The translations under genes were made by a program, and so were the position numbers. The notes below the pieces were generated by a model. The model saw only the letters and a program-made list of their open reading frames with translations, was not told the origin of the DNA and did not search any database. A DNA stretch of 64,000 nt from a virus. Numbering within the stretch: the stretch's first letter is position 1; every line of letters starts with the position of its first letter. The stretch is from UHGV virus genome UHGV-0371537; one strand, 5' to 3'. Positions 5,269-63,688 of the stretch are shown here, piece by piece.

Positions 5269-6741
5269 ATGTATCAGGTAATCTGTAGTGTCTGTCATGA
5301 ACAGTTCAAAGCATCCAGGAAAGATAAGAAATTTTGTTCAGATGGTTGTAAAACGTTTTCTAGCAACACATTGAAAAATCTATCACCGGAATTTGTTGCT
5401 GATGCGACGTGCCTTTCGGATGAAGAATCTTATCGTCAATTTTTCCATAAACACATGTTCACTAAGAACAATAAATTGGATATTCAGAAATGCAAATCTA
5501 ATTTGTTAATGAAGCACATCAGATTGGACCTGTTGATATTTGCCAACGCCCATAACACCCTACAAGATCTGGCCTGTAAAGTCACAGCATGGTTACACAA
5601 TAGAACCGTGAAAATGTGCCCTGTGTGTTCCAAAGAAACCAACTTTTACATCAATGACAAAGATTACAGAACATATTGTTCCGAAGAATGTTATCAGATT
5701 TCTATGTGTAAAGGCGGGGTTGGTCGGAAAGCTATAGAGGCTTCAAATATATCCAAATATGGGAGCTGCTCTACACTACAACTACCTGGTGTGAGGAAGA
5801 AGGCGTTGATAACATTACAAGAACGTTATGGTGTTGACAATCCCATGAAAAACTCGATCATATTGAAACGTGCATTGTTTAACAATGGTTCTGTCAGGAA
5901 TAAGAAATCTTCTTATGAAAAAGAAATATCCGAGTTCCTCACCTCAATAGGAGTTGTGAACAAGGTTTCTAATTACAGTATATTGTCAGGCAAACAATTG
6001 GATATCTACTGCCCGGAACACAAACTTGCAATAGAATTCAATGGGTTGTACTGGCATTCAGAAGTTTTTAAAGAAAAACGGTATCATCTAGAAAAGACTG
6101 AAATGTGTGAATCTCAGGGTATCCAGTTGATCCATATTTGGGAAGACGAATGGGCTGAGAAACAGGATGTGGTCAAATCTCTTCTGAAGGCAAAACTCGG
6201 CATTAAAACGCCTGTCTCATACGCTCGCCAACATAAAGTTGTTTGGGGTAATATAAACGGTGTGAGGGAGTTTCTAGACGCCCATCATATACAAGGTTCC
6301 GTGTCGTCCACCCACCACTTATCGCTAATTGATAAGGCTGGTGTGATACAGGCCGTGATGTTGTTTACCAAAAGGAAAGATGGCCTGGAATTAGTCAGAT
6401 TTGCCTCTAATGATTGCCACGGGGCGTTCAGTAAACTTCTATCGCACTTCAGAAGGAAATTTGTTGGTGTCCCAATCTATTCTTTTGGCGACAGGTGTGT
6501 CGTAAGCAGGCTGTCGAACATTTACCTATCCCACAGGTTCATAGAAGAGGAAGTACAGAAGCCGGATTACAAATATCACAAGCCTGGTACATTTATGCGT
6601 GAGCACAAGTTCGGTTTCAGAAAAGATTCATTTGCTCGGATGGGTTATGACATAGAAGGCAAAACAGAAAGCCAGTTAGCAACCGAAGCCGGGCTGGTCA
6701 GGATTTGGAATTGTGGTCTGATCAAATATACCTTGAACTAA
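5269..6741 (+). CDS. free-standing homing-endonuclease-like protein: N-terminal CxxC zinc fingers plus PD-(D/E)XK (DUF559/Vsr-like) nuclease core
   Basis: CSVCHEQF, CPVCSKE...CSEECY zinc-finger pairs; LDIYCPEHKLAIEFNGLYWHSE nuclease motif; AAGGAG RBS; sits right after capsid gene where T4 carries segD. Confidence 0.6.
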   Translation: MYQVICSVCHEQFKASRKDKKFCSDGCKTFSSNTLKNLSPEFVADATCLSDEESYRQFFHKHMFTKNNKLDIQKCKSNLLMKHIRLDLLIFANAHNTLQDLACKVTAWLHNRTVKMCPVCSKETNFYINDKDYRTYCSEECYQISMCKGGVGRKAIEASNISKYGSCSTLQLPGVRKKALITLQERYGVDNPMKNSIILKRALFNNGSVRNKKSSYEKEISEFLTSIGVVNKVSNYSILSGKQLDIYCPEHKLAIEFNGLYWHSEVFKEKRYHLEKTEMCESQGIQLIHIWEDEWAEKQDVVKSLLKAKLGIKTPVSYARQHKVVWGNINGVREFLDAHHIQGSVSSTHHLSLIDKAGVIQAVMLFTKRKDGLELVRFASNDCHGAFSKLLSHFRRKFVGVPIYSFGDRCVVSRLSNIYLSHRFIEEEVQKPDYKYHKPGTFMREHKFGFRKDSFARMGYDIEGKTESQLATEAGLVRIWNCGLIKYTLN

Positions 6742-45576: not shown

Positions 45577-47565
45577 ATGGCCACCCCATCTTTCTTAAAT
45601 TTCCTTGAAGAGTCTAAACAATTAGACGAAGCGTTCAACTCCGCTCCGTATGAGCTGACCATGGGTAAGAAGAACGCAGGCGATGTGTTCTTCACCTTCA
45701 TCGACGAAGATGAAAAGGAATACCGTATTCAGTTCTATACCCCACAGGGGCTGGGCAAGAACGTTCGTCAGGTCTTCATCGGCCAGAAGCGCGGCTCCGT
45801 CTACCCTGATGCCATCGCTCGCTTCAAAAACCCAATGCGCGTCATCGCCTCCATGATCGAAGCGACCAAGCAGTTCCTGGCGACCCCTCTGGGCAAGACC
45901 ATCGATGGTTATGCTGTCAACTTCTCTAAGAAAGCGCTGGAACGCGGGATGACCCTGATTCCTAAGATCATCCGCCAGTCCGGCCTGAAGCAGAAACTGA
46001 ACGTCATGGACCTGACTTACGCGCCTGTCCCTGACCGTGGTTATGTGTGGTTGGTCCGCAAGGGCAAAGATCCGGCTCAGGTATTCGACGGTCCGAAGAT
46101 GCAGGGCATCACCTGGGATGATCCAGACAAGGTCGGTGACGTTCCGGTTCAGAACAATACCCCAGATGTGGGGACTTCATCTTCTGTTGATGATTCCAAC
46201 GGATGGAAATTAACTTCAAACGGGGATCAGCCTATGTTGATCTGGGTTGGCAAAGAGAGAGGCCGCATGAACACGGCAAATATCGCTCCCCACTACAATG
46301 AGCCAGGCGTGTATGTTGGCGCATACATGAATGAGAAATCTGTGCGTGGGCAAAGTGCTGATTTCATTGCTCGTCAGTTGAAATTACCGCAAGTCCCTAT
46401 CAGTATCCTGAATGATTTCACCACGGCGTCCACAAAATTTTGGAAAGGTTCTCAGCAGAAGTCTGCGCCAGCTGACTCCAACACCACTATTGGTGCTCGG
46501 GGTGTGGGAACTGGGTCTGGTTCTTCTGAAATCGAAATCAACCGCGACTGGTACAACAGCTCAGACACTGGTCTGGTGTTGAAGAGCGGGCGCGACCCGA
46601 TTCGCGGAAACTACACCCGCTTGATGAGCGGTTCGAGAGAAGTAGCCACATTCTATGGCTATGATTTTGACAAATACCCAGACGGAACTGAAGTATCTTG
46701 GAATATGAAGCGCGGCTTCACCAACCAAGACTTGGTCGGTGCGTCCATGACCAAACAGAAGAAAGGCATGTACGATCAGTACACTTTCAAGAAAGGTGCT
46801 CAGTTAATTCTGGTGGTGGACGTTGATACCAGCAACAATACCAACACCCTCAGTTCTAACGACCTAAAAATCCCGCGCAACGCCGAAGTATTCGGTGAAA
46901 CTGGTAGTGGTTTCTCCGTTCGGTGGGCTGTCAATTTCCCCGAAACGGGAAAATATGCCGGTACTTCTATGATAACCAACGTAACCTATTATCATGACAA
47001 AGGCAAAGTTGCATTCACCCCAATTGTCTCTCAGAAAGGGCGTACCCTGAACAATCCGAAGACATATGAACTTCCTTTGAACAAAGATTTGGTCCAGAGT
47101 GTGATTGATGAGATTTCATCAAAAATGGTATATCTTTCCAGAAACCTCCAACAGTTGAAAAGTCAGACATACAACCCAAACCAGGTTTTCTTGAATGATA
47201 TAACCATCACGGATAAAGGTGAAGTGATTTGGAACGATTACAACTTGTCTGACGGCAAAGTTACACAAATTATGCTGTCCATGATAAGCGCAGAAAATAA
47301 ACGCTTGGAGAAAGTGACAAACAGGCCGGATATCACATTACCAAAGAAACAAGCCGAAGTAGTAGAATTTATAAACCGGATGATTGATATTGATCTCGGA
47401 CCTTATTTGAGAGAACCCAAAAAACGTGATGTGGTATTATTCGACTCTTCTGAATTGTCGATAAACCAACTCAACAACATAGAACGCCTGGGAAGAGAAA
47501 CAGGAAAATGGTCTCTTCAGTCAAACGGCGGTATGGGTCATGCACTATTTCTGAATGTTTGGTGA
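45577..47565 (+). CDS. large hypothetical protein with possible capsid-targeting N-terminus (Alt-like position)
   Basis: 662 aa; N-terminus MATPSFLNFLEES resembles T4 internal-protein targeting leaders; no ADP-ribosyltransferase motif confirmed. Confidence 0.5.
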   Translation: MATPSFLNFLEESKQLDEAFNSAPYELTMGKKNAGDVFFTFIDEDEKEYRIQFYTPQGLGKNVRQVFIGQKRGSVYPDAIARFKNPMRVIASMIEATKQFLATPLGKTIDGYAVNFSKKALERGMTLIPKIIRQSGLKQKLNVMDLTYAPVPDRGYVWLVRKGKDPAQVFDGPKMQGITWDDPDKVGDVPVQNNTPDVGTSSSVDDSNGWKLTSNGDQPMLIWVGKERGRMNTANIAPHYNEPGVYVGAYMNEKSVRGQSADFIARQLKLPQVPISILNDFTTASTKFWKGSQQKSAPADSNTTIGARGVGTGSGSSEIEINRDWYNSSDTGLVLKSGRDPIRGNYTRLMSGSREVATFYGYDFDKYPDGTEVSWNMKRGFTNQDLVGASMTKQKKGMYDQYTFKKGAQLILVVDVDTSNNTNTLSSNDLKIPRNAEVFGETGSGFSVRWAVNFPETGKYAGTSMITNVTYYHDKGKVAFTPIVSQKGRTLNNPKTYELPLNKDLVQSVIDEISSKMVYLSRNLQQLKSQTYNPNQVFLNDITITDKGEVIWNDYNLSDGKVTQIMLSMISAENKRLEKVTNRPDITLPKKQAEVVEFINRMIDIDLGPYLREPKKRDVVLFDSSELSINQLNNIERLGRETGKWSLQSNGGMGHALFLNVW

Positions 47566-47637
47566 AACAAGCTGAACTTGAACAGAATAAAGCCCCTCCG
47601 GGGGCTAATTACATCTAAATCCCCGAGGAGAGATCCA

Positions 47638-48210
47638 ATGAAACCTTTTATCGAATATTTTAAAGAGCAAGCTGCACAGCCTCAGACCCATGCTGGTGTC
47701 CAGGGTAAGACCGTATCCATCACCAAGCAAGCTGACGGCACCCAGTGGTGTTCCGGCGCTACCGTGACCCAGATCACTCCTGACAATCAGGCGGATGTCT
47801 ACAACCTGGAGTTAACCAACGGCAACACCATCAAGGTGAAGCTGACCCCAGACCAGACTCACGGTATCTCCCAAGGTCAGGAAGTTGTTGCTGTCCACGA
47901 TGGCTTCGAATTCTTCTTCTTCGGCAAGTCCGCCGACAAAGGCCAGGTGACTGAAGCCTATGCCCAGGAACTGGCGAACATGGACAAGATGATCGGTAAA
48001 GCACTGGGTGTTGGCAAGTCCCGCAAGAGTGGTCGCACTGAGTTCGAATACTCTGGCATCCCTGGCATCGGCAAGGCGATCACCGTGAACTTCGGCGGCG
48101 AAGATGACCCATATGTGATCGTCACCTGCAACGGCAAAGAGCAGGACATCAGCAAGGGTAAAAACCTGGCTGCTGACATTGCCAAGTTCCTCGGTGTTAA
48201 GCCTGTGTAG
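47638..48210 (+). CDS. internal-protein-like head protein candidate
   Basis: 190 aa; N-terminus MKPFIEYFKEQAA resembles T4 IP leader MKTYQEFIAEA; GAGGAGAG RBS. Confidence 0.5.
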   Translation: MKPFIEYFKEQAAQPQTHAGVQGKTVSITKQADGTQWCSGATVTQITPDNQADVYNLELTNGNTIKVKLTPDQTHGISQGQEVVAVHDGFEFFFFGKSADKGQVTEAYAQELANMDKMIGKALGVGKSRKSGRTEFEYSGIPGIGKAITVNFGGEDDPYVIVTCNGKEQDISKGKNLAADIAKFLGVKPV

Positions 48211-48240
48211 AAGGGTGAACTTTGCAACCGGGTGAGTCGT

Positions 48241-52514: not shown

Positions 52515-52542
52515 TTCGCATTCATTGCGGAGGTATTTTCTT

Positions 52543-53337
52543 ATGGCCATTCTAAAACTTGGCAACCGTGGCACTGAAGTGAAGGCACTTCAGGATAGCC
52601 TCAACAAAATCGGCTTCACCCTCGTCGCCGACGGCATCTTTGGTAAGGCAACAGAGAACGCTGTCAAGACTGTTCAGGCGGGTGCGGGGCTTGTCATCGA
52701 CGGTATCGTGGGTCCAAAGACCTCCTATGCTATTCGCAACGCTGGAGACGCCCATCAAGATCACCTGACCGAGGCTGACCTTATCGATGCGGCTAATCAG
52801 CTTGGAGTTGATCTCGCCTCTGTAAAGGCGGTCAACCAGGTGGAATCCCGTGGCACTGGCTTCACCAAGTCAGGTAAGATCAAGACATTGTTCGAACGCC
52901 ACATCATGTACAAGAAGCTCATGGCGAAGTTCGGCCAGGCTCGGGCGAATGCTATAGGGCAGATGTACCCGACGTTGGTCAGTCCTTCTGCAGGTGGGTA
53001 CACGGGCGGCGATGCAGAACTGGATCGACTTCATGCGGCCATCAACATCGACGAGGATTGTGCGTACGAGAGTGCCTCATACGGTCTCTTCCAGATCATG
53101 GGCTTCAACTGCCAGGTCTGTGGGTATGCCAATGCCAAGGAGATGTTCAATGACTTCCTGACAGGCGAACGTGCTCATCTGATGGCATTCGTGAAGTTCA
53201 TCAAGGCCGATGCCAAGCTCTGGCAGGCTCTGAAGGACAAGAACTGGGCTGAGTTTGCGCGGCGCTATAATGGTCCGGCGTATGCCAAGAACCAGTACGA
53301 CACGAAGCTCGCTGCTGCATACAAGAGTTTCAGTTAA
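52543..53337 (+). CDS. modular endolysin: N-terminal peptidoglycan-binding domain plus C-terminal muramidase-like domain
   Basis: N-terminus LKLGNRGTEVKALQ...DGIFG...DGIVGP (PG-binding repeat); C-terminus ESASYGLFQIMGFN; GGAGG RBS. Confidence 0.75.
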   Translation: MAILKLGNRGTEVKALQDSLNKIGFTLVADGIFGKATENAVKTVQAGAGLVIDGIVGPKTSYAIRNAGDAHQDHLTEADLIDAANQLGVDLASVKAVNQVESRGTGFTKSGKIKTLFERHIMYKKLMAKFGQARANAIGQMYPTLVSPSAGGYTGGDAELDRLHAAINIDEDCAYESASYGLFQIMGFNCQVCGYANAKEMFNDFLTGERAHLMAFVKFIKADAKLWQALKDKNWAEFARRYNGPAYAKNQYDTKLAAAYKSFS

Positions 53338-54353: not shown

Positions 54354-55013
54354 ATGAATTATCAAAATATCTATGACTCTCTGATACAAAGAGCCAAGAC
54401 CCGTTCATTGGTTGGTTATTCTGAAACCCACCATATTATCCCTAGATGTATGGGAGGGAAAGATGACAAACATAATCTGGTGGAGTTGACACCAGAAGAA
54501 CATTATTTAGCACATCAATTGTTAGTCAAAATATATCCCAAAAATTTCAAATTAGCATTTGCAGCTAATGCTATGTGCGTAAACAATGAATTCTCCGGTA
54601 GATCTTGTAACAAATTATTCGGTTGGTTGCGGAGAAAACTTTCTCATTCCAATAAACAGATGTACAAAGACAACCCTAATTTGAGGAAAATTCGTTCCGA
54701 TCAAATGAAACAGACACATGTAAAGTATTCTCATTTGCGGGAAATACAGTCTAAACGTTTGAAGGAAAACAATATATGCGTGATAAAACAACCTTGGGAA
54801 AGTAACCATGCCACCAAAGAGTCTTTGGATATATGGAAACGCGCCGACGAATATTATGATTGGTGGTTGTGCAACCAAAAAGGTTGCACGTTCATGGCGA
54901 AAGCGTTTGGGTTCAAAAACAAGACGACTCCGCATTTCACAATGATTAATAAATTTAAATCTGGGTGGAATCCCAAAGCCGACCCAGAGTGGTTAGAGTT
55001 TGTAAGTCAATAA
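54354..55013 (+). CDS. HNH family homing endonuclease (mob-like)
   Basis: YSETHHIIPRCMGGKDDKHNLVELTPEEHYLAH (HNH); inserted between phoH and nrdA; C-terminal NKFKSGWNP motif shared with two other endonucleases. Confidence 0.75.
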   Translation: MNYQNIYDSLIQRAKTRSLVGYSETHHIIPRCMGGKDDKHNLVELTPEEHYLAHQLLVKIYPKNFKLAFAANAMCVNNEFSGRSCNKLFGWLRRKLSHSNKQMYKDNPNLRKIRSDQMKQTHVKYSHLREIQSKRLKENNICVIKQPWESNHATKESLDIWKRADEYYDWWLCNQKGCTFMAKAFGFKNKTTPHFTMINKFKSGWNPKADPEWLEFVSQ

Positions 55014-55072: not shown

Positions 55073-57361
55073 ATGAGCGAAATTAACGTCATTAAGCGGG
55101 ACGGATCTTCTGTCCCCTTTGATATTGAGAAACTACACGCAGTCGTAGACCGCGCATGTGACGGCCTGCCTGGTGTATCAATGTCAGAGGTGATCGCTGC
55201 ATCGAAGATTCAGTTCACCGACAACATGAGAACAGATCGCATTCAGGATATCCTCATCCAGGCTGCGGCTTCGCTGATCTCTGTAGACAAACCCAATTAC
55301 CAGTATGTGGCTGCTCGCCTGAAGTCATATGATCTGCGCAAGGCTGTCTATGGCCAGTACAAGCCGCCTCACCTGCTGGATATCTTCGTCAAGAACATCA
55401 AACAGCGTGTGTATGATCGTGAGTTCCTTGATCTCTACACGACCGAAGAGTTCAACGAGCTGAACGATGTTATCAACCACAAACGTGACAAGAACTTCAC
55501 CTGGGCGGCCATGGGTCAGCTGACAGAGAAGTATCTGCTGCGTGACCGTTCCAAGAAGGACAGCAAGATCTTCTATGAAACCCCACAGGTCATGTACATG
55601 GGCATCGCCATGGCGTTGTTCTCCAACTGGGACAAAGACAGCCGCCTGGATATGGTGAAGAAGTTCTATGAATATGCCAGCACAGGCAAGTTCAGTCTTC
55701 CAACCCCGATTATGGCAGGCGTTCGTACTCCTACCCGTCAGTTCAGTTCCTGCGTGTTGATCAAAACTGGTGACACCCTGGACTCTATCAACGCAACAGC
55801 CAAGACCATCGTTGACTATGTGTCCAAACGTGCGGGTATCGGCTTCGACATCGGGGCGATACGTGGGATTGGTAGTCCTATTCGCGGCGGAGAGATGGTT
55901 CACACAGGCCTGATCCCATTCATCAAGTATCTCACTGGGGCGCTCAAGTCTTGCTCCCAGGGCGGCATTCGTGGTGGTGCAGCAACAGCTTATATCCCTC
56001 TGTGGCATTACCAGTTCGATGACGTCGTTGTACTGAAGAATAACCGTGGCACTGAAGAAAACCGCGAACGCCGTATCGACTACGGTATTCAGATCAACCG
56101 CGTGATGTTTGAGCGCCTGGTTGCCAAGCAGCCTCTGTATCTGTTCGACCCGAAAGACAACCGCGAAATGTACGAAGCATACTTCTCCGACGTCGACAAG
56201 TTCCGTACTCTGTATGAGAACATGATCAAGGCCGCCGATGCTGGTCTGGTACGTTCTAAGAAGCTGCAGGCTGAAGAAGTGTTCCAGATGCTGTTAGACC
56301 AGCGTTCAGACACAGGCCGCATCTACATCGCATTTGTCGATCACATGAATGAATACAGCCCATTCAACCTCGACACGATCTACAGCTCCAACCTGTGTCT
56401 TGAAATCGCCCTGCCGACCCGTGAGTTTGAGCAGTACAACGATGAAAACGGGCGCGTGGCTCTGTGCACCCTGGCTTCCTTTAACCTGACGGCGTTCGAA
56501 GACCCGACTGAGATGGAAGACGTGGCGTTTGTGTTGGTGTCTGCGCTGGACATGCTGTTGGAATATCAGGACTATCCGGCAATCCAGGCTCGTAAGGCTG
56601 TTGAGGATTATCGCCCTCTGGGTGTTGGTATCGTGAACGTGGCTCACTTCTTGGCCAAGAACTTCACAGGCTATGGTTCTCCGGCTGGTCTTGAGATGTT
56701 GGATGCGTGGATGGCACACCTGCACTACTATCTGGTCAAGGCATCCAACCGTCTGGCGATGAAGTTCGGTGCATGCAAACGTGGAACCATCCACAATAAT
56801 GGGCAGGTCACTGCCGATCTTCAGCCGCTTCCACTTGATATCCTGCCGAATGGTAAGAAACCGGAAGGCATGGCATACGGCCTGGATTGGGAAGAACTGA
56901 AGGATGATCTGAAGACCTATGGTATCCGCAATGCCACCCTGCTGGCAGTAGCCCCTACCGAAAGCTCCTCACAAGTCCTCAACGCAACGAACGGCATTGA
57001 GCCACCGAAGGGCTTGGTAAGCATTAAGGGCAGCAAGGACGGCACGTACAAGCAGGTCGTTCCGGATGTAGAGACCCTTGGACCGCTGTATGACCTGAAG
57101 TGGGACCTGGAATGCATCGAGTACCTGAAGACCGCTGCTGTCATCCAGCGCTGGGTTGACCAGTCCATCAGTACCAACACATGGTATGACCCAGAGAAGT
57201 ACCCTGACGGCAAGATCCCTCGTGCTAAGATGATGCAGGATATCCTGTCGTTCTATATGTGGGGTGGTAAGACTCTGTATTACAACACGAACAAGGACGC
57301 CAAGGAAGACGAAGAGCTGAAACAGGCTGATGCCGTGGAATGTGAAAGTTGTATCGTGTAG
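55073..57361 (+). CDS. nrdA: ribonucleotide reductase large subunit (class Ia NrdA)
   Basis: 762 aa; N-terminal ATP-cone (VIKRDGSSVPFDIEKL), catalytic region SSNLCLEI..., C-terminal CESCIV tail. Confidence 0.9.
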   Translation: MSEINVIKRDGSSVPFDIEKLHAVVDRACDGLPGVSMSEVIAASKIQFTDNMRTDRIQDILIQAAASLISVDKPNYQYVAARLKSYDLRKAVYGQYKPPHLLDIFVKNIKQRVYDREFLDLYTTEEFNELNDVINHKRDKNFTWAAMGQLTEKYLLRDRSKKDSKIFYETPQVMYMGIAMALFSNWDKDSRLDMVKKFYEYASTGKFSLPTPIMAGVRTPTRQFSSCVLIKTGDTLDSINATAKTIVDYVSKRAGIGFDIGAIRGIGSPIRGGEMVHTGLIPFIKYLTGALKSCSQGGIRGGAATAYIPLWHYQFDDVVVLKNNRGTEENRERRIDYGIQINRVMFERLVAKQPLYLFDPKDNREMYEAYFSDVDKFRTLYENMIKAADAGLVRSKKLQAEEVFQMLLDQRSDTGRIYIAFVDHMNEYSPFNLDTIYSSNLCLEIALPTREFEQYNDENGRVALCTLASFNLTAFEDPTEMEDVAFVLVSALDMLLEYQDYPAIQARKAVEDYRPLGVGIVNVAHFLAKNFTGYGSPAGLEMLDAWMAHLHYYLVKASNRLAMKFGACKRGTIHNNGQVTADLQPLPLDILPNGKKPEGMAYGLDWEELKDDLKTYGIRNATLLAVAPTESSSQVLNATNGIEPPKGLVSIKGSKDGTYKQVVPDVETLGPLYDLKWDLECIEYLKTAAVIQRWVDQSISTNTWYDPEKYPDGKIPRAKMMQDILSFYMWGGKTLYYNTNKDAKEDEELKQADAVECESCIV

Positions 57362-59342: not shown

Positions 59343-59732
59343 ATGAACTATCCTCTTGACGCGAAATTTATTCTTCCAAGGAAGGAACTAGACACCTTCC
59401 GGGTTCTGCATCAACTTTTGGCCGCCGGGGAAACAATCCCGCTATACGAAGGTGGAAAGAAGGTAGGAAAAGGAATTTCGTGTGCGATCGATGACAGTGA
59501 ATACTGGGCATTTGATTTCAATCGCACCGAGAATTTCAAGCCAAGGGATTCATCAATGATGATGAGGTTCATGATTGACAAACCAATTGACCTACAGAAG
59601 TATGATCTGTTCTTGGACGCGATCCCATACGAATTCAGGGAGGAGGGTCTGAAGTACAGATTTGCGTTGTTGGTGTGCTTCAAAATGACTATCGTCCTGA
59701 AGCCTATGTTCACACCGCCCAACGCAAGTTAA
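59343..59732 (+). CDS. hypothetical protein
   Basis: 129 aa, GGAG RBS. Confidence 0.45.
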   Translation: MNYPLDAKFILPRKELDTFRVLHQLLAAGETIPLYEGGKKVGKGISCAIDDSEYWAFDFNRTENFKPRDSSMMMRFMIDKPIDLQKYDLFLDAIPYEFREEGLKYRFALLVCFKMTIVLKPMFTPPNAS

Positions 59733-60113
59733 TCAGTTCGTCCTTTTCAACCACACGGTGTCTGTTATTGGATCTGGGTTGTTGACCACATAGAAAGTGA
59801 TGGTCACGCCCAGAGAGTGGTAATCTTCCGACAGACTGACCGTGACTTCCTCCACCTCGGCTCGTGGTTCATACAGAGCAATAGCATCTTCAACTTTGTT
59901 CTTCACATCTACCTGAATCGTCGGGTTCGTGTTCTCCCCGAGTAGATTGTAAAGCCCCGCTCCGATCCCAGGGTATGTCGGCCAATCTCCAACCGACGAC
60001 ATGACGATATTCCTCACAGATTGTAGGACAGCGTAAATCCCAGATTTCATGGTGACATCTTTGGTCACAGGGTGCATGCCGAACTTCAGATCGACATCTT
60101 TGTATTCTTTCAT
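59733..60113 (-). CDS. gp25: baseplate wedge protein (T4 gp25 / GPW-like)
   Basis: Aligns to recalled T4 gp25 (SVRNIVMSSVGDWPTYPGIGAGL vs SIKNSLLGIITTRKGSRPFDPEFGCDL; YEPRAEVEEV vs YEPRIDKLAV; VNNPDP vs IDNPDD); GAGGAG RBS. Confidence 0.7.
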   Translation of the reverse strand: MKEYKDVDLKFGMHPVTKDVTMKSGIYAVLQSVRNIVMSSVGDWPTYPGIGAGLYNLLGENTNPTIQVDVKNKVEDAIALYEPRAEVEEVTVSLSEDYHSLGVTITFYVVNNPDPITDTVWLKRTN

Positions 60114-60187
60114 TACAACACTCCTCTCAGGGTGCCTAGAAGGAGCAGAGAGGAGCGTTGCCCCTCTGCCACTAAACTTATACCAAC

Positions 60188-61798
60188 TTACTCTTCGGTG
60201 CCGAAATTACCACCATTGTCTTTTAATTCTGCCTTGATATCAATCTCACCTGGACCCGTAGGGGATGCAGGGGTTGCACCTGACAGAGAAGAGGCGCGAC
60301 CAGCACCTTCCGCATATTTGATGTTGCCATTAATCGTCTGGGCCACAGTCAGTTTGTCGGCGATGATCTCTGTTGCCAGAATCTTAGGAACCTTCAACGT
60401 CCCGCCGACCTCCAGAGTCTCACAGATAATACGCAAAATATTCTGCGCCTGCAACTCAGCCAGGTTGCTGAATTTCATCAACGCTGTGCCAGCAACAACA
60501 TTAGAATAGTTGTTGGAATGCAAATGATAGACTTCACCAGTCTTGCGCTGCACTTCCGTTCCTTTGATCGTCAGGTTGTGATCGCCGCCAACATAATAAC
60601 GTTTGTTGAACATCGTCAGATCATAATGATCTTTCACAGACTTGTTCACAACGTCACCGTCTGGCAGCATTTGTTTGTACGACCCGGACATGTGCATCCA
60701 GTGAAGACGTTCGCCCCCCGGTGTGTCATCCACTTCCATGATGTGGCCAGCCCGAGAAGCCATGACGTTGTTGTACGGATACTTGGACCCACCCGCAGCC
60801 GGAACCATAGTTTCGCCAGTGTTGTCAATGTCCTGAACACGGCCTGTTGGTGCTGGCGTTGCCTGCTCTTTCGGAGTCCGATCTGGAATTGGTTCTGACC
60901 ATTTACCGTTCTGTTGGGCGGGGGCAGCCGCAGCTGTGTTTGCAGGTCCAGGCCAGCGATAGCCCAAGACCGAAGAACGGCTGAAACGACTGACCTTCAC
61001 TGAATCGGATTGGTTGCCCCCGATACACCAGACATAGTTGGCATCGAACTTCTGCACGAACGCCACATGGCCGAATGTCGGGTTGTTACCGCGCCGGAAG
61101 ACCACGATAGCGCCATACTGAGGTGCCGACAATGGACTACCCCACGTCAGGTAAGATCGGGCAAGAGCGGAGCGTGTGGAAGTGTATCCGGCCTTTAACA
61201 TAACCCAACCAACAAACGCAGCGCACCAGGATACTTCATCTTCAGATGCACCAAGCGAGGTTGTCTTGTGATACTCAACGATGCGGGGGTTGTTGTTGAA
61301 CTTGCCAGCATATTCTTTGACGCCAAGTTCACCACGGGCGATAGTCATCCATTTTTCAGGATCATACCCACCCACAGGAGGCTGAGGGTCTGGCTGAGGT
61401 TCGTCTTCTTGCTTTACAGGTACATCAGTGACAGCATTGTACGCCTGACGTTCAACAGACATGACGACCTGCCCCAGAGCCAGGGGGTTTGTGTCCGCCC
61501 CATCAGTCGGGGTCGCACCCGGCCAGGTCCATGCGATTCTGAGATTCTGGTATGCGTCATCCAGCGCGAACCCCATGACTTCCGTGCCGACAATGATACC
61601 CGTAGGGGACCAACCTAAACCTGCCGAGGAGGCATTCGACGCAGGCATCATCACTTTTGCCCATGGGAGTTTATCCGTAGGCAAGAGGACGGGATCATCT
61701 GTATGTATGCCGTGTATGCGAACGGCCACGCGCCCGTTTTCATCAGGATCATTGACGTCTTCAACGGTGCCATAAAACCATCTCATTTTGTCTAACAT
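60188..61798 (-). CDS. baseplate hub/central spike protein (gp5-like) with CHAP peptidoglycan-hydrolase domain
   Basis: N-terminus FYGTVEDVNDPDENGRVAVRIHGIHTD...LPWAKVMMP (gp5 OB-fold signature); central SWCAAFVGWV...GHVAFV (Cys/His CHAP-like). Confidence 0.7.
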   Translation of the reverse strand: MLDKMRWFYGTVEDVNDPDENGRVAVRIHGIHTDDPVLLPTDKLPWAKVMMPASNASSAGLGWSPTGIIVGTEVMGFALDDAYQNLRIAWTWPGATPTDGADTNPLALGQVVMSVERQAYNAVTDVPVKQEDEPQPDPQPPVGGYDPEKWMTIARGELGVKEYAGKFNNNPRIVEYHKTTSLGASEDEVSWCAAFVGWVMLKAGYTSTRSALARSYLTWGSPLSAPQYGAIVVFRRGNNPTFGHVAFVQKFDANYVWCIGGNQSDSVKVSRFSRSSVLGYRWPGPANTAAAAPAQQNGKWSEPIPDRTPKEQATPAPTGRVQDIDNTGETMVPAAGGSKYPYNNVMASRAGHIMEVDDTPGGERLHWMHMSGSYKQMLPDGDVVNKSVKDHYDLTMFNKRYYVGGDHNLTIKGTEVQRKTGEVYHLHSNNYSNVVAGTALMKFSNLAELQAQNILRIICETLEVGGTLKVPKILATEIIADKLTVAQTINGNIKYAEGAGRASSLSGATPASPTGPGEIDIKAELKDNGGNFGTEE

Positions 61799-61830
61799 AT
61801 TGAGTTCCGGTTGTCAAACAAGGATTTGAA

Positions 61831-61840
61831 GGTATTTATG
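61831..61840 (-). promoter_or_regulatory. candidate late promoter element (CATAAATACC on minus strand) ahead of the gp5-like gene
   Basis: Reverse complement of 61831-61840 is CATAAATACC, about 33 nt upstream of minus-strand ATG 61798. Confidence 0.4.
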
Positions 61841-62130
61841 CGCAGCGGATTTTGCCTTATATACTATAGGAAGCTCTGCTTCCGTTCAGTTATTGTCTTA
61901 TTCGATCTTATTCGCTTCGCTCATCACACCGCCTTATGCAGGCAGCACCATTCCAATGCCATGGAGGCATAAGGGCGAGGCAATAACTGTACACCTCAGA
62001 ACATCCCTTGAAAAATGGTTTTTAATTGACAATCTGATTCAAAATAGACGATCCCCAACAATGACTCAGGAACAAGCCCATTATAACAATTTCAGGTAAA
62101 GAGAGCGCGTGTTAACCTGTTTTGCAGTTA

Positions 62131-62160
62131 AGCCAATAAAAATCCCGCCGAAGCGGGATT
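62131..62160 (-). terminator. rho-independent terminator for minus-strand gene 62308-63114
   Basis: AATCCCGC-CGAA-GCGGGATT hairpin; on the minus strand it is followed by TTTTATTGG. Confidence 0.65.
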
Positions 62161-62307
62161 ATGGTTTCTTAGACAACCTGACCTTGAGGGCTTCAGTTAA
62201 CAAGTCAAGGTGCCATGGCATCGATTCATTGATTTCAAATATGTTATAGCCGTGTAACTTCAATTCATCACACATCACGAAATAGGATAATAAATCAGTT
62301 TCAAACA

Positions 62308-63114
62308 TTAAATGAAAATTTCATTAATGCTATTGAACTCAATAGGATGCTCTTTACCACATTTAGGGCATTTGATTTTGTTCTTGTAGTGGATGCGAGG
62401 AATTTTATGGAAGAAGTTCTTCGTAATATCCTCGATAACATCCGATTCAAGATTGTCTTTTACCCATTCAATGAAAGCGTCTTTGACACGACGACGCTCA
62501 ATAGATTCTTCGGGCGTGATGCCCGGTTCATCCGGGTTCTCTACACGCCATACTTGTCCATCGTCATCATACAGACAATCAATGAAAGTCGCCAGCATTT
62601 CTTCAATGCTAGATGATTCAGACAGAGCCGTGGCATCGGCAAAGGAGGGCTGGCGCATCTTCAGATGATAACCACCCGGCAGGTCAAAGATTTCTTTAAA
62701 CCCTTCCTTCGCTACACACTTGACATTCAGTAGAGGGATAGGCAGCACCAGTTCCTGCTTACAAGGAACCATGGTTTTCTTCTCGATTCCTTCCCCGACG
62801 TCTGTCGTTTCTTCGATTTGGTTGTTGCATTCATAGCGGATTTTCATCAATTCGCCAATAGCGATGCTACGCATGCGGATGAACACTTCTTCAACAACAC
62901 CGATCGGCAGTTTGTTAAACGGTGCCCCGGCTTCAACACAATCTGCAAACAGGCTTTCCATAATCGCAGCACGCTCTTCAACCGGAGTCTGAGGATCCGC
63001 GACCTGTAGCATGAGAGTTTGTTGCCCGGCAGTGAAAGCGCGATATCTGATGACACTCGGCCAAAAATCGCTTTTGAATGTCTTTTCTGTTCTGGGCAAT
63101 GAAGGTAATTTCAT
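62308..63114 (-). CDS. hypothetical protein, possibly baseplate/tail-associated, with C-terminal zinc ribbon
   Basis: 268 aa from ATG 63114 (GGAG RBS 8 nt upstream); C-terminal CPKCGKEH; upstream of gp5-like gene on same strand. Confidence 0.5.
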   Translation of the reverse strand: MKLPSLPRTEKTFKSDFWPSVIRYRAFTAGQQTLMLQVADPQTPVEERAAIMESLFADCVEAGAPFNKLPIGVVEEVFIRMRSIAIGELMKIRYECNNQIEETTDVGEGIEKKTMVPCKQELVLPIPLLNVKCVAKEGFKEIFDLPGGYHLKMRQPSFADATALSESSSIEEMLATFIDCLYDDDGQVWRVENPDEPGITPEESIERRRVKDAFIEWVKDNLESDVIEDITKNFFHKIPRIHYKNKIKCPKCGKEHPIEFNSINEIFI

Positions 63115-63163
63115 AATGTATCTCCATGGTATATTGTAAGGATATTTATAACGAGGAATGAAA

Positions 63164-63688
63164 ATGCGCGGATTCTGTTTTAGCGAAATTGGCAAAGAAC
63201 TGTCGATACAATATCCAGACCCCAATACAGACTTCTTTATTTTCTTGTCTGACTATGCCCAGAAAGAGAATATTAGTCACATTGCGATGAAGTACGAAGA
63301 TTATAAATTTTGTCGATTGGGTGTTAAGGATCTCTTGCGCTTCGGACTGTGTGTCATTATCGTAGATCAAACCTATAGCCCCATTGATGATGAAGAAGTC
63401 CTTCCTGTTTTCGTACATCGCAATATCAACACTCTGGATACACATTTTCCTGGGTGTGTGGTCGTTGGTGAGCTGGTTCCTTATTTCCACCGTTTGCGGA
63501 AGTTGGAACAAATTAAAAGTTATTTTCAAGATGGCGTGGGTCAATATAAGATGAACGTCCTCGGTAGTGGATGGAAAGTGTTGTCAACAGCTGGTGGCAC
63601 CGACTATATCAAAATGCGGGTCTATGGTTATGACGTGGACCGCGATTATGAACTGGAGAAAAGTAATGCAAAAAGAAAACGCCGTTGA
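63164..63688 (+). CDS. hypothetical protein
   Basis: 174 aa, divergent from the minus-strand gene at 63114; GAGGA RBS. Confidence 0.45.
   Translation: MRGFCFSEIGKELSIQYPDPNTDFFIFLSDYAQKENISHIAMKYEDYKFCRLGVKDLLRFGLCVIIVDQTYSPIDDEEVLPVFVHRNINTLDTHFPGCVVVGELVPYFHRLRKLEQIKSYFQDGVGQYKMNVLGSGWKVLSTAGGTDYIKMRVYGYDVDRDYELEKSNAKRKRR

Follow-up and report, generated by a model that had tools for sequence, protein, structure and literature searches.

The central membrane-puncturing spike of phage T4, gp5 (tail-associated lysozyme; PDB 1K28 and 1PDL), has a wall enzyme embedded in it, and the gene 5 homolog of the viral genome UHGV-0371537 raises the question of which enzyme takes that place and which bond it would cut. 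We analyzed a window of 64,000 nts (the whole stretch of DNA under study), in which gene 5 is a single long minus-strand ORF with an ATG start, encoding 536 aa followed by a stop codon (Table 1). The initial annotation had proposed that this protein is a gp5-like spike with a CHAP domain instead of the T4 lysozyme domain, implying that a different peptidoglycan bond is cut during penetration. This interpretation is supported here and refined, in that the domain belongs to TIGR02594 of the NlpC/P60-CHAP clan. The protein is the tail-tip spike of a ViI-like (Ackermannviridae) phage, with a cysteine peptidase where T4 has a lysozyme.

Domain architecture of the spike protein

The spike protein is matched by PHROG 430 (E=5.7e-154) in the PHROGs profile search, and its domain-profile matches lie far above chance level. 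The strings quoted in the initial annotation are present in the translation, namely FYGTVEDVNDPDENGRVAVRIHGIHTD at aa 8-34 and LPWAKV at aa 44-49 in the N-terminal part, and the Cys/His strings SWCAAFVGWV at aa 190-199 and GHVAFV at aa 243-248 in the center. The gp5 OB-fold proposed for the N-terminus is borne out by a Gp5_OB match in Pfam (aa 39-97, E=5.3e-13, 49.9 bits against a cut-off of 25) and by alignment with T4 gp5 residues 7-102 in the PDB sequence search (domain E ~1e-13). Pfam also reported a weak match to Phage_base_V at aa 10-65, and five strands were placed at aa 6-92 (pLDDT 70-78) in a full-length AF2 model. This monomer model, computed on a 26-sequence alignment, has a mean pLDDT of 50, and only the OB and peptidase domains reach moderate confidence. 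It was dropped as a query for the fold search because the linkers, beta-helix and tip are too poorly predicted.

In the PDB search, the T4 gp5 structures (1k28, 1pdl and others) and the related spike 9F4A align only to approximately aa 2-94 and 337-440, which leaves the whole central region of the spike unmatched, by the T4 lysozyme domain as well. Neither of the two connectors that flank this region has a family match in Pfam. The connector at aa 100-149 has a pLDDT below 50, yet 80% of its columns are invariant among eight orthologs. In the connector at aa 283-337 the pLDDT is below 40; the equivalent segment of T4 contains the gp5 maturation cleavage site. Farther downstream, aa 338-440 align to T4 gp5 residues 385-487 (domain E=7e-14) and to 9f4a residues 385-464 in the PDB search. 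The Pfam Gp5_C repeat models have no match to the spike at E<=0.1, and the pLDDT of the region is below 40 in the monomer AF2 model; the putative beta-helix needle is assigned by sequence homology to T4 gp5, over aa 338-440 only. The C-terminal 96 aa (441-536) have no similarity to T4 gp5C and no relative among PDB structures at E<=10. They match only PHROG 430 (positions 435-497) and contain a low-confidence helix at aa 451-465 in the full-length AF2 model. The spike tip of Ackermannviridae may differ from the T4 gp5C end.

Table 1. Features of the gene 5 locus and of the separate endolysin gene (window coordinates)
Feature	Position	Strand	Basis
Gene 5 homolog, baseplate central spike protein	60188..61798	-	ORF; 97.4% aa identity to phiD3
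gp5-type N-terminal OB-fold domain, aa 1-99 (putative hub docking)	61502..61798	-	Pfam, T4 alignment
Pro/Asp/Glu-rich connector, OB to peptidase, aa 100-149	61352..61501	-	Composition
TIGR02594 / CHAP-like papain-fold cysteine peptidase in place of the T4 lysozyme, aa 150-282	60953..61351	-	NCBIfam, Pfam, fold
Codon of Cys192, predicted catalytic nucleophile	61223..61225	-	Invariance, model
Codon of His244, predicted catalytic base	61067..61069	-	Invariance, model
Codons of Asn262-Gln263 (GGNQ motif), predicted third polar triad residue	61010..61015	-	Invariance
Ala/Pro-rich connector, peptidase to beta-helix, aa 283-337	60788..60952	-	Composition
Putative start of gp5C-type beta-helix needle, aa 338-440	60479..60787	-	Homology to T4 gp5
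C-terminal end/tip of spike, aa 441-536	60191..60478	-	PHROG 430 only
gp25-like baseplate wedge protein, 126 aa, directly downstream	59733..60113	-	GPW_gp25 E=5.4e-9; PHROG 261 E=4e-33
gp26-like baseplate hub protein, upstream	62308..63225	-	T4_baseplate E=1.8e-43; PHROG 150
CATAAATA, T4-late-promoter-like element, 35-42 nts upstream of ATG	61833..61840	-	Sequence, LIMEstone1 offset
Endolysin, PG_binding_1 + N-acetylmuramidase	52525..53337	+	Muramidase PF11860 E=2e-59; PG_binding_1 E=1.4e-14

Family and fold of the central domain

The center of the spike matched the NCBIfam family TIGR02594 over model positions 2-132 of 132 (E=1.5e-38, 132.1 bits against a cut-off of 70.55) and the Pfam CHAP family (PF05257, peptidase C51-like) at aa 187-262 over model positions 4-81 of 81 (E=1.6e-10, 41.8 bits against a cut-off of 26), which, together with the invariance of the Cys and His residues, agrees with the CHAP-like reading. 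At E<=0.1, Pfam reported neither lysozyme families nor NLPC_P60 (PF00877) for the spike, and a few free-standing TIGR02594 homologs have a precomputed PF00877 match. The predicted kinship of the domain to NlpC/P60 (peptidase C40) holds at the level of fold and clan only.

When the central 143 aa were compared with PDB sequences, no lysozyme was retrieved at E<=10, and the sole match was a marginal one to the phi812 hub lytic domain (E=0.19); a fold comparison was therefore needed. The domain was modeled by AF2 from aa 138-288 aligned with 41 homologs of 45-57% identity, resulting in a mean pLDDT of 94.3 and a pTM of 0.90. The top-scoring structural neighbors of this model are gamma-D-Glu-mDAP endopeptidases. 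CHAP lysins (LysIME-EF1, 13.0; PlyGRCS, 12.0; Ly7917, 11.3; LysGH15, 10.7; PlyC, 8.9), T6SS amidase effectors (Tae3, 10.4; Tse1, 8.7) and Gsp amidase were also found, and the Foldseek result agrees with this list. Lysozymes are absent from both fold-search lists. On this model, the central domain is a papain-like alpha+beta fold. A T4-lysozyme-like domain, which the initial annotation had judged to be missing from the center, was found in none of the Pfam, PDB sequence and fold searches, and neither a lysozyme nor a non-enzymatic fold was assigned to this region.

Catalytic residues and selective constraint

Cys192, His244, Asn262 and Gln263 are invariant in a 42-sequence TIGR02594 alignment (45-57% identity), in 26 full-length or OB+CHAP (spike-type) homologs and in eight Ackermannviridae orthologs. 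In the domain model (domain-model numbering), helix 55-65 starts at Cys192 and His244 lies within strand 106-114, an arrangement that is papain-like. By analogy with the papain-like arrangement of NlpC/P60-CHAP proteins, Asn262/Gln263 would complete the triad. Among the eight orthologs, conservation is highest in the peptidase domain, where 86% of columns are invariant, compared with 76% in the beta-helix region and 64% in the OB domain. The dN/dS values of the peptidase domain are 0.007-0.03 at a dS of 0.7-2, the dS against Aglimvirinae relatives being 0.7-1.0. Such low dN/dS and high invariance indicate that the peptidase domain is under strong purifying selection, as would be the case for a working enzyme.

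A different pattern was observed at the 3' end of gene 5. In the last 42 codons (60188-60316), dS against Aglimvirinae relatives is 0.06-0.25, whereas it is 0.8-2 elsewhere in the gene, that is, synonymous divergence is five- to fifteen-fold lower than in the rest of gene 5. The 3' end and the junction to gene 25 (60114-60187) are 93-98% identical to LIMEstone1 at the nucleotide level, compared with 75-88% for the gene body. Possible explanations are a recombination boundary, an RNA signal, or a regulatory element for gene 25 embedded in this segment.

Comparison with other spikes and free-standing homologs

The spike and T4 gp5 are homologous in sequence over the OB domain (aa 4-94) and over the putative first part of the needle (aa 338-440), both genes are located among baseplate genes, and both products would act as a central membrane-puncturing spike with an embedded wall enzyme. 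The enzyme module differs, being a GH24 lysozyme in T4 and a papain-fold cysteine peptidase here. Moreover, the spike lysozyme of T4 is a paralog of its endolysin, whereas the endolysin of this phage is a PF11860 muramidase, judged from its sequence to be unrelated to the spike enzyme. The endolysin ORF is matched by PHROG 1224 (endolysin, E=4e-135); PHROGs files its two best families under 'head and packaging', yet describes both as endolysin. In CBA120, no lysis enzyme had been identified as of 2011 (PMC3184105).

Besides spikes, the same catalytic domain occurs in free-standing TIGR02594 proteins of 130-220 aa, which share 45-60% identity and the invariant Cys/His/Asn-Gln residues and whose annotations are those of phage endolysins or T6SS effectors. 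Outside any spike, they stand alone or are fused to PG_binding_1, LysM, SH3_3 or GH108 (GH108+PG_binding_3), and these peptidoglycan-module fusions support a cell-wall role of the TIGR02594 domain. The protein GP207 of Vibrio phage ICP1 (MW794190.1, locus 2252-2968) has PG_binding_1 and CHAP domains, with no OB domain and no needle. This architecture resembles that of an endolysin, so the label of GP207 was probably taken over from ViI-like gp5 by way of the TIGR02594 domain. Cysteine peptidases are also present in the hubs or tail tips of Gram-positive systems, such as the diffocin CD1368 hub-hydrolase (8V3W), the phi812 hub (9EUF/9EUM) and gp10 of phage Andhra (8EJ5). However, these are built on other scaffolds against Gram-positive targets, lack the gp5 OB + gp5C framework, and have no detectable sequence relationship to the spike beyond the peptidase fold.

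A closer likeness was found in needle-less OB + TIGR02594 proteins of 288-333 aa, with 33-38% identity over aa 8-283. They comprise a 288-aa OB+CHAP protein of Rhizobium phage P9VFCI_231 (Pootjesviridae), similar fusions in the metagenomic proteins P0145 and P0146, and an unannotated 328-aa Gp5_OB + CHAP ORF of Delftia phage PhiW-14 (GQ357915.1, locus 1480-2466), which is homologous to aa 8-283 of the spike (33% identity, E=1e-45). The PhiW-14 ORF is located directly upstream of the annotated 'gp5', and its stop codon overlaps the 'gp5' start. The tblastn match from our spike runs on into this 'gp5', which has a GH19-like domain of 24.4 bits, just under the Pfam cut-off of 25.5. The PhiW-14 spike may be split into two genes with two different wall enzymes. 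To judge from these sequences, the OB-TIGR02594 fusion predates Ackermannviridae.

Other modules were also observed on gp5-OB proteins. The metagenomic protein P0147 (805 aa) combines a gp5 OB domain with a T6SS VgrG3-like C-terminal domain (PF21277, E=1.4e-37), and P0150 is without an enzyme domain. A central GH24 lysozyme marks the T4 subgroup only, and many gp5-like spikes are without the module or have it swapped. Given this variety (TIGR02594, VgrG3-like or none), the enzymatic head of these spikes is an interchangeable unit, being a GH24 lysozyme in T4 and a TIGR02594 peptidase in ViI-like, PhiW-14-like and some Rhizobium phages.

Phage relatives and previous descriptions

At the nucleotide level, gene 5 is 85-87% identical to gp5 genes of Ackermannviridae, the value being 86-87% for Enterobacter phage EspM4VN, Dickeya Limestonevirus phages and Shigella phage Ag3, and its protein has 97.4% aa identity to that of Dickeya phage phiD3. 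Positions 40000-64000 of the window show ~92% identity over ~87% of the query to Agtrevirus genomes (Ag3, SKML-39, MK-13 and ChubbyThor), which makes the phage a probable new species of Ackermannviridae, subfamily Aglimvirinae. Import of gene 5 by recombination, considered in view of the mosaic identity to LIMEstone1, was dropped since the window is closer to Agtrevirus overall; such a mosaic is consistent with ordinary divergence that varies along the sequence, regulatory regions being conserved.

The gp5 proteins of other Ackermannviridae (CBA120 orf 46,626-48,239; Vi01; PhiSH19; LIMEstone1 ORF061; Ag3 orf00084) are orthologs of the spike. They have 536-541 aa, 85-97% aa identity, the same OB + TIGR02594/CHAP (aa 150-282) + gp5C-like layout and the same neighborhood (gp26-like, gp5 and gp25, with glutaredoxin and NrdB/NrdA on the opposite strand), and they differ from it by sequence divergence only, nearly all nucleotide differences being synonymous. 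The full architecture is present in 23 clusters of a large protein database (57-94% identity, 532-617 aa), including Vi01, Serratia 3M and Erwinia phiEa2809, and 282 records of a phage collection cover at least 80% of the spike. Literature and database annotation identify the orthologs as virion components: the ViI ortholog was detected in proteomics (PMC3184105), LIMEstone1 ORF061 is annotated as 'confirmed structural protein', and 20 peptides of the 'Tail associated lysozyme' were retrieved from Sajous1, a Vi01-like phage.

The same architecture was described for CBA120 gp5 by Kutter et al. 2011 in the section 'Baseplate Lysozyme', with the domain flanked by aa 3-109 and 334-437 common to T4 gp5 (PMC3184105), and the PhiSH19 protein was listed by Hooton et al. 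2011 as 'Gp5 OB family & CHAP domain' (PMC3220722). The reading of a spike with a cysteine peptidase is therefore right, but it has been in the literature for Ackermannviridae since 2011, is ordinary there, and is implicit in domain databases. A literature search for biochemical or structural studies of the Ackermannviridae spike or of TIGR02594 enzymes yielded annotations and proteomics only, and no baseplate structure of this phage family was found in it.

Genomic neighborhood and non-coding DNA

Gene 5 sits among baseplate genes in a neighborhood typical for Ackermannviridae, in the order gp26-like gene, 49-aa ORF with a hairpin terminator, gene 5 and gp25-like gene, followed on the opposite strand by glutaredoxin, NrdB and NrdA. 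The LIMEstone1 ortholog of the gp26-like gene is annotated as 'putative baseplate hub subunit gp26; confirmed structural protein'. The 49-aa ORF (62159-62308, minus strand) overlaps the stop codon of the gp26-like gene and has no Pfam match. It is followed by a strong hairpin terminator at 62141-62160 (AATCCCGC-TTCG-GCGGGATT plus a T-run), and the two correspond to LIMEstone1 ORF060 and its annotated terminator. A generic scan for sigma-70 promoters and terminators at 59600-62400 gave counts at chance level, save for this hairpin.

The 342-nt stretch upstream of gene 5 (61799-62140) is without a long ORF, contains CATAAATA, and is 85-100% identical to LIMEstone1, a phage of another genus, which exceeds the identity of the flanking coding DNA. 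As a structured RNA it was rejected (folding z=0.01, no Rfam match, no tRNA). At the same offset as CATAAATA, LIMEstone1 has the annotated -10 signal of a 'putative late promoter' (locus 5959-5964; gene start 6001), and late expression of gene 5 from a promoter of the T4-late type seems likely.

Two further observations were made on the neighboring genes. A 219-aa ORF at 54354-55013 (plus strand), located between a PhoH-like gene and nrdA, may be a homing endonuclease insertion; its only match, to an HNH endonuclease, is weak (E=0.003) and falls short of the Pfam cut-off. The NrdA ORF of the window (55073-57361) has 2289 nts (762 aa), compared with 3303 nts for nrdA of LIMEstone1 (NC_019925.1, 49117-52419), which also has an extra small ORF067 between nrdB and nrdA that is absent from the window. 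This suggests that additional DNA has inserted into LIMEstone1 nrdA, possibly in the form of an intein or another mobile element.

Proposed mechanism and bond specificity

Very probably, the gene 5 product is the trimeric gp5-type spike of a myovirus, with its OB domains on the hub, a needle, and, in place of the GH24 lysozyme, a TIGR02594 peptidase that would cut peptide stems. The structure of T4 gp5 (PDB 1K28), reportedly that of Kanamaru and coworkers in 2002, serves as the model for such a trimer. By analogy with T4 gp5, the N-terminal OB domains of the trimer would dock under the baseplate hub, the C-terminal strands would wind around one another to form a needle, driven through the outer membrane on sheath contraction, and the enzymatic domains would then reach the periplasm. 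There, the predicted Cys192-His244-Asn262 peptidase would make a local gap in the peptidoglycan, where peptide stems or cross-links are cut and the glycan strands spared, and this gap would let the tail tube reach the inner membrane. By the same analogy, the spike may also undergo a T4-like proteolytic maturation.

We infer the activity of the domain on peptidoglycan and its bond specificity from the structural model; for any TIGR02594 member, the searched literature holds annotations only, with no enzymatic assay or bond specificity. The bond cut is most likely gamma-D-Glu-meso-DAP, with a chance that we place slightly short of even, since the top-scoring structural neighbors are gamma-D-Glu-mDAP endopeptidases. 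The neighbors also include MepS (DD-endopeptidase/LD-carboxypeptidase), CHAP amidases and Gsp amidase, so the fold by itself leaves the bond unfixed. Thus, the cysteine hydrolase could be an N-acetylmuramoyl-L-alanine amidase, the classical CHAP activity, that strips stems from the glycan, a reading we regard as unlikely though credible. A little less probable again is an mDAP-D-Ala DD-endopeptidase like MepS or T6SS Tae2/Tae3, which would loosen the mesh by removing cross-links; MepS/Tae-type neighbors score below the DL-endopeptidases in the fold comparison. It would be surprising if the bond were one new for Gram-negative phage entry enzymes, such as the Braun-lipoprotein-mDAP link or the 3-3 mDAP-mDAP cross-link. 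As a separate point, the low-dS last 42 codons may overlap a nucleotide-level functional element.

That the central domain is no wall hydrolase at all is quite improbable; it would then be a structural spacer, or else a protease whose substrates are proteins of the phage itself, as in spike maturation. Such a role would accord with the maturation cleavage that T4 gp5 undergoes and with the lack of TIGR02594 activity data in the searched literature. However, the triad is also invariant in free-standing homologs that have no spike to process, these homologs are fused to peptidoglycan-binding modules, and a dN/dS of ~0.01 across the whole peptidase domain argues against a mere spacer. We give practically no credence to a literal reading of the GenBank label, by which the spike would carry a lysozyme (glycosidase), as this is already refuted by the domain and fold searches. 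The near-universal label 'tail lysozyme' is chemically wrong for Ackermannviridae.

The interest that remains lies in the spike tip and in the bond specificity of TIGR02594, a large family with more than 1,300 matches here. For enzybiotic work, the isolated peptidase domain is a candidate enzyme against the peptidoglycan of Gram-negative bacteria, and if the bond cut should prove to be new, wall penetration by Ackermannviridae and related phages would follow a novel chemistry.
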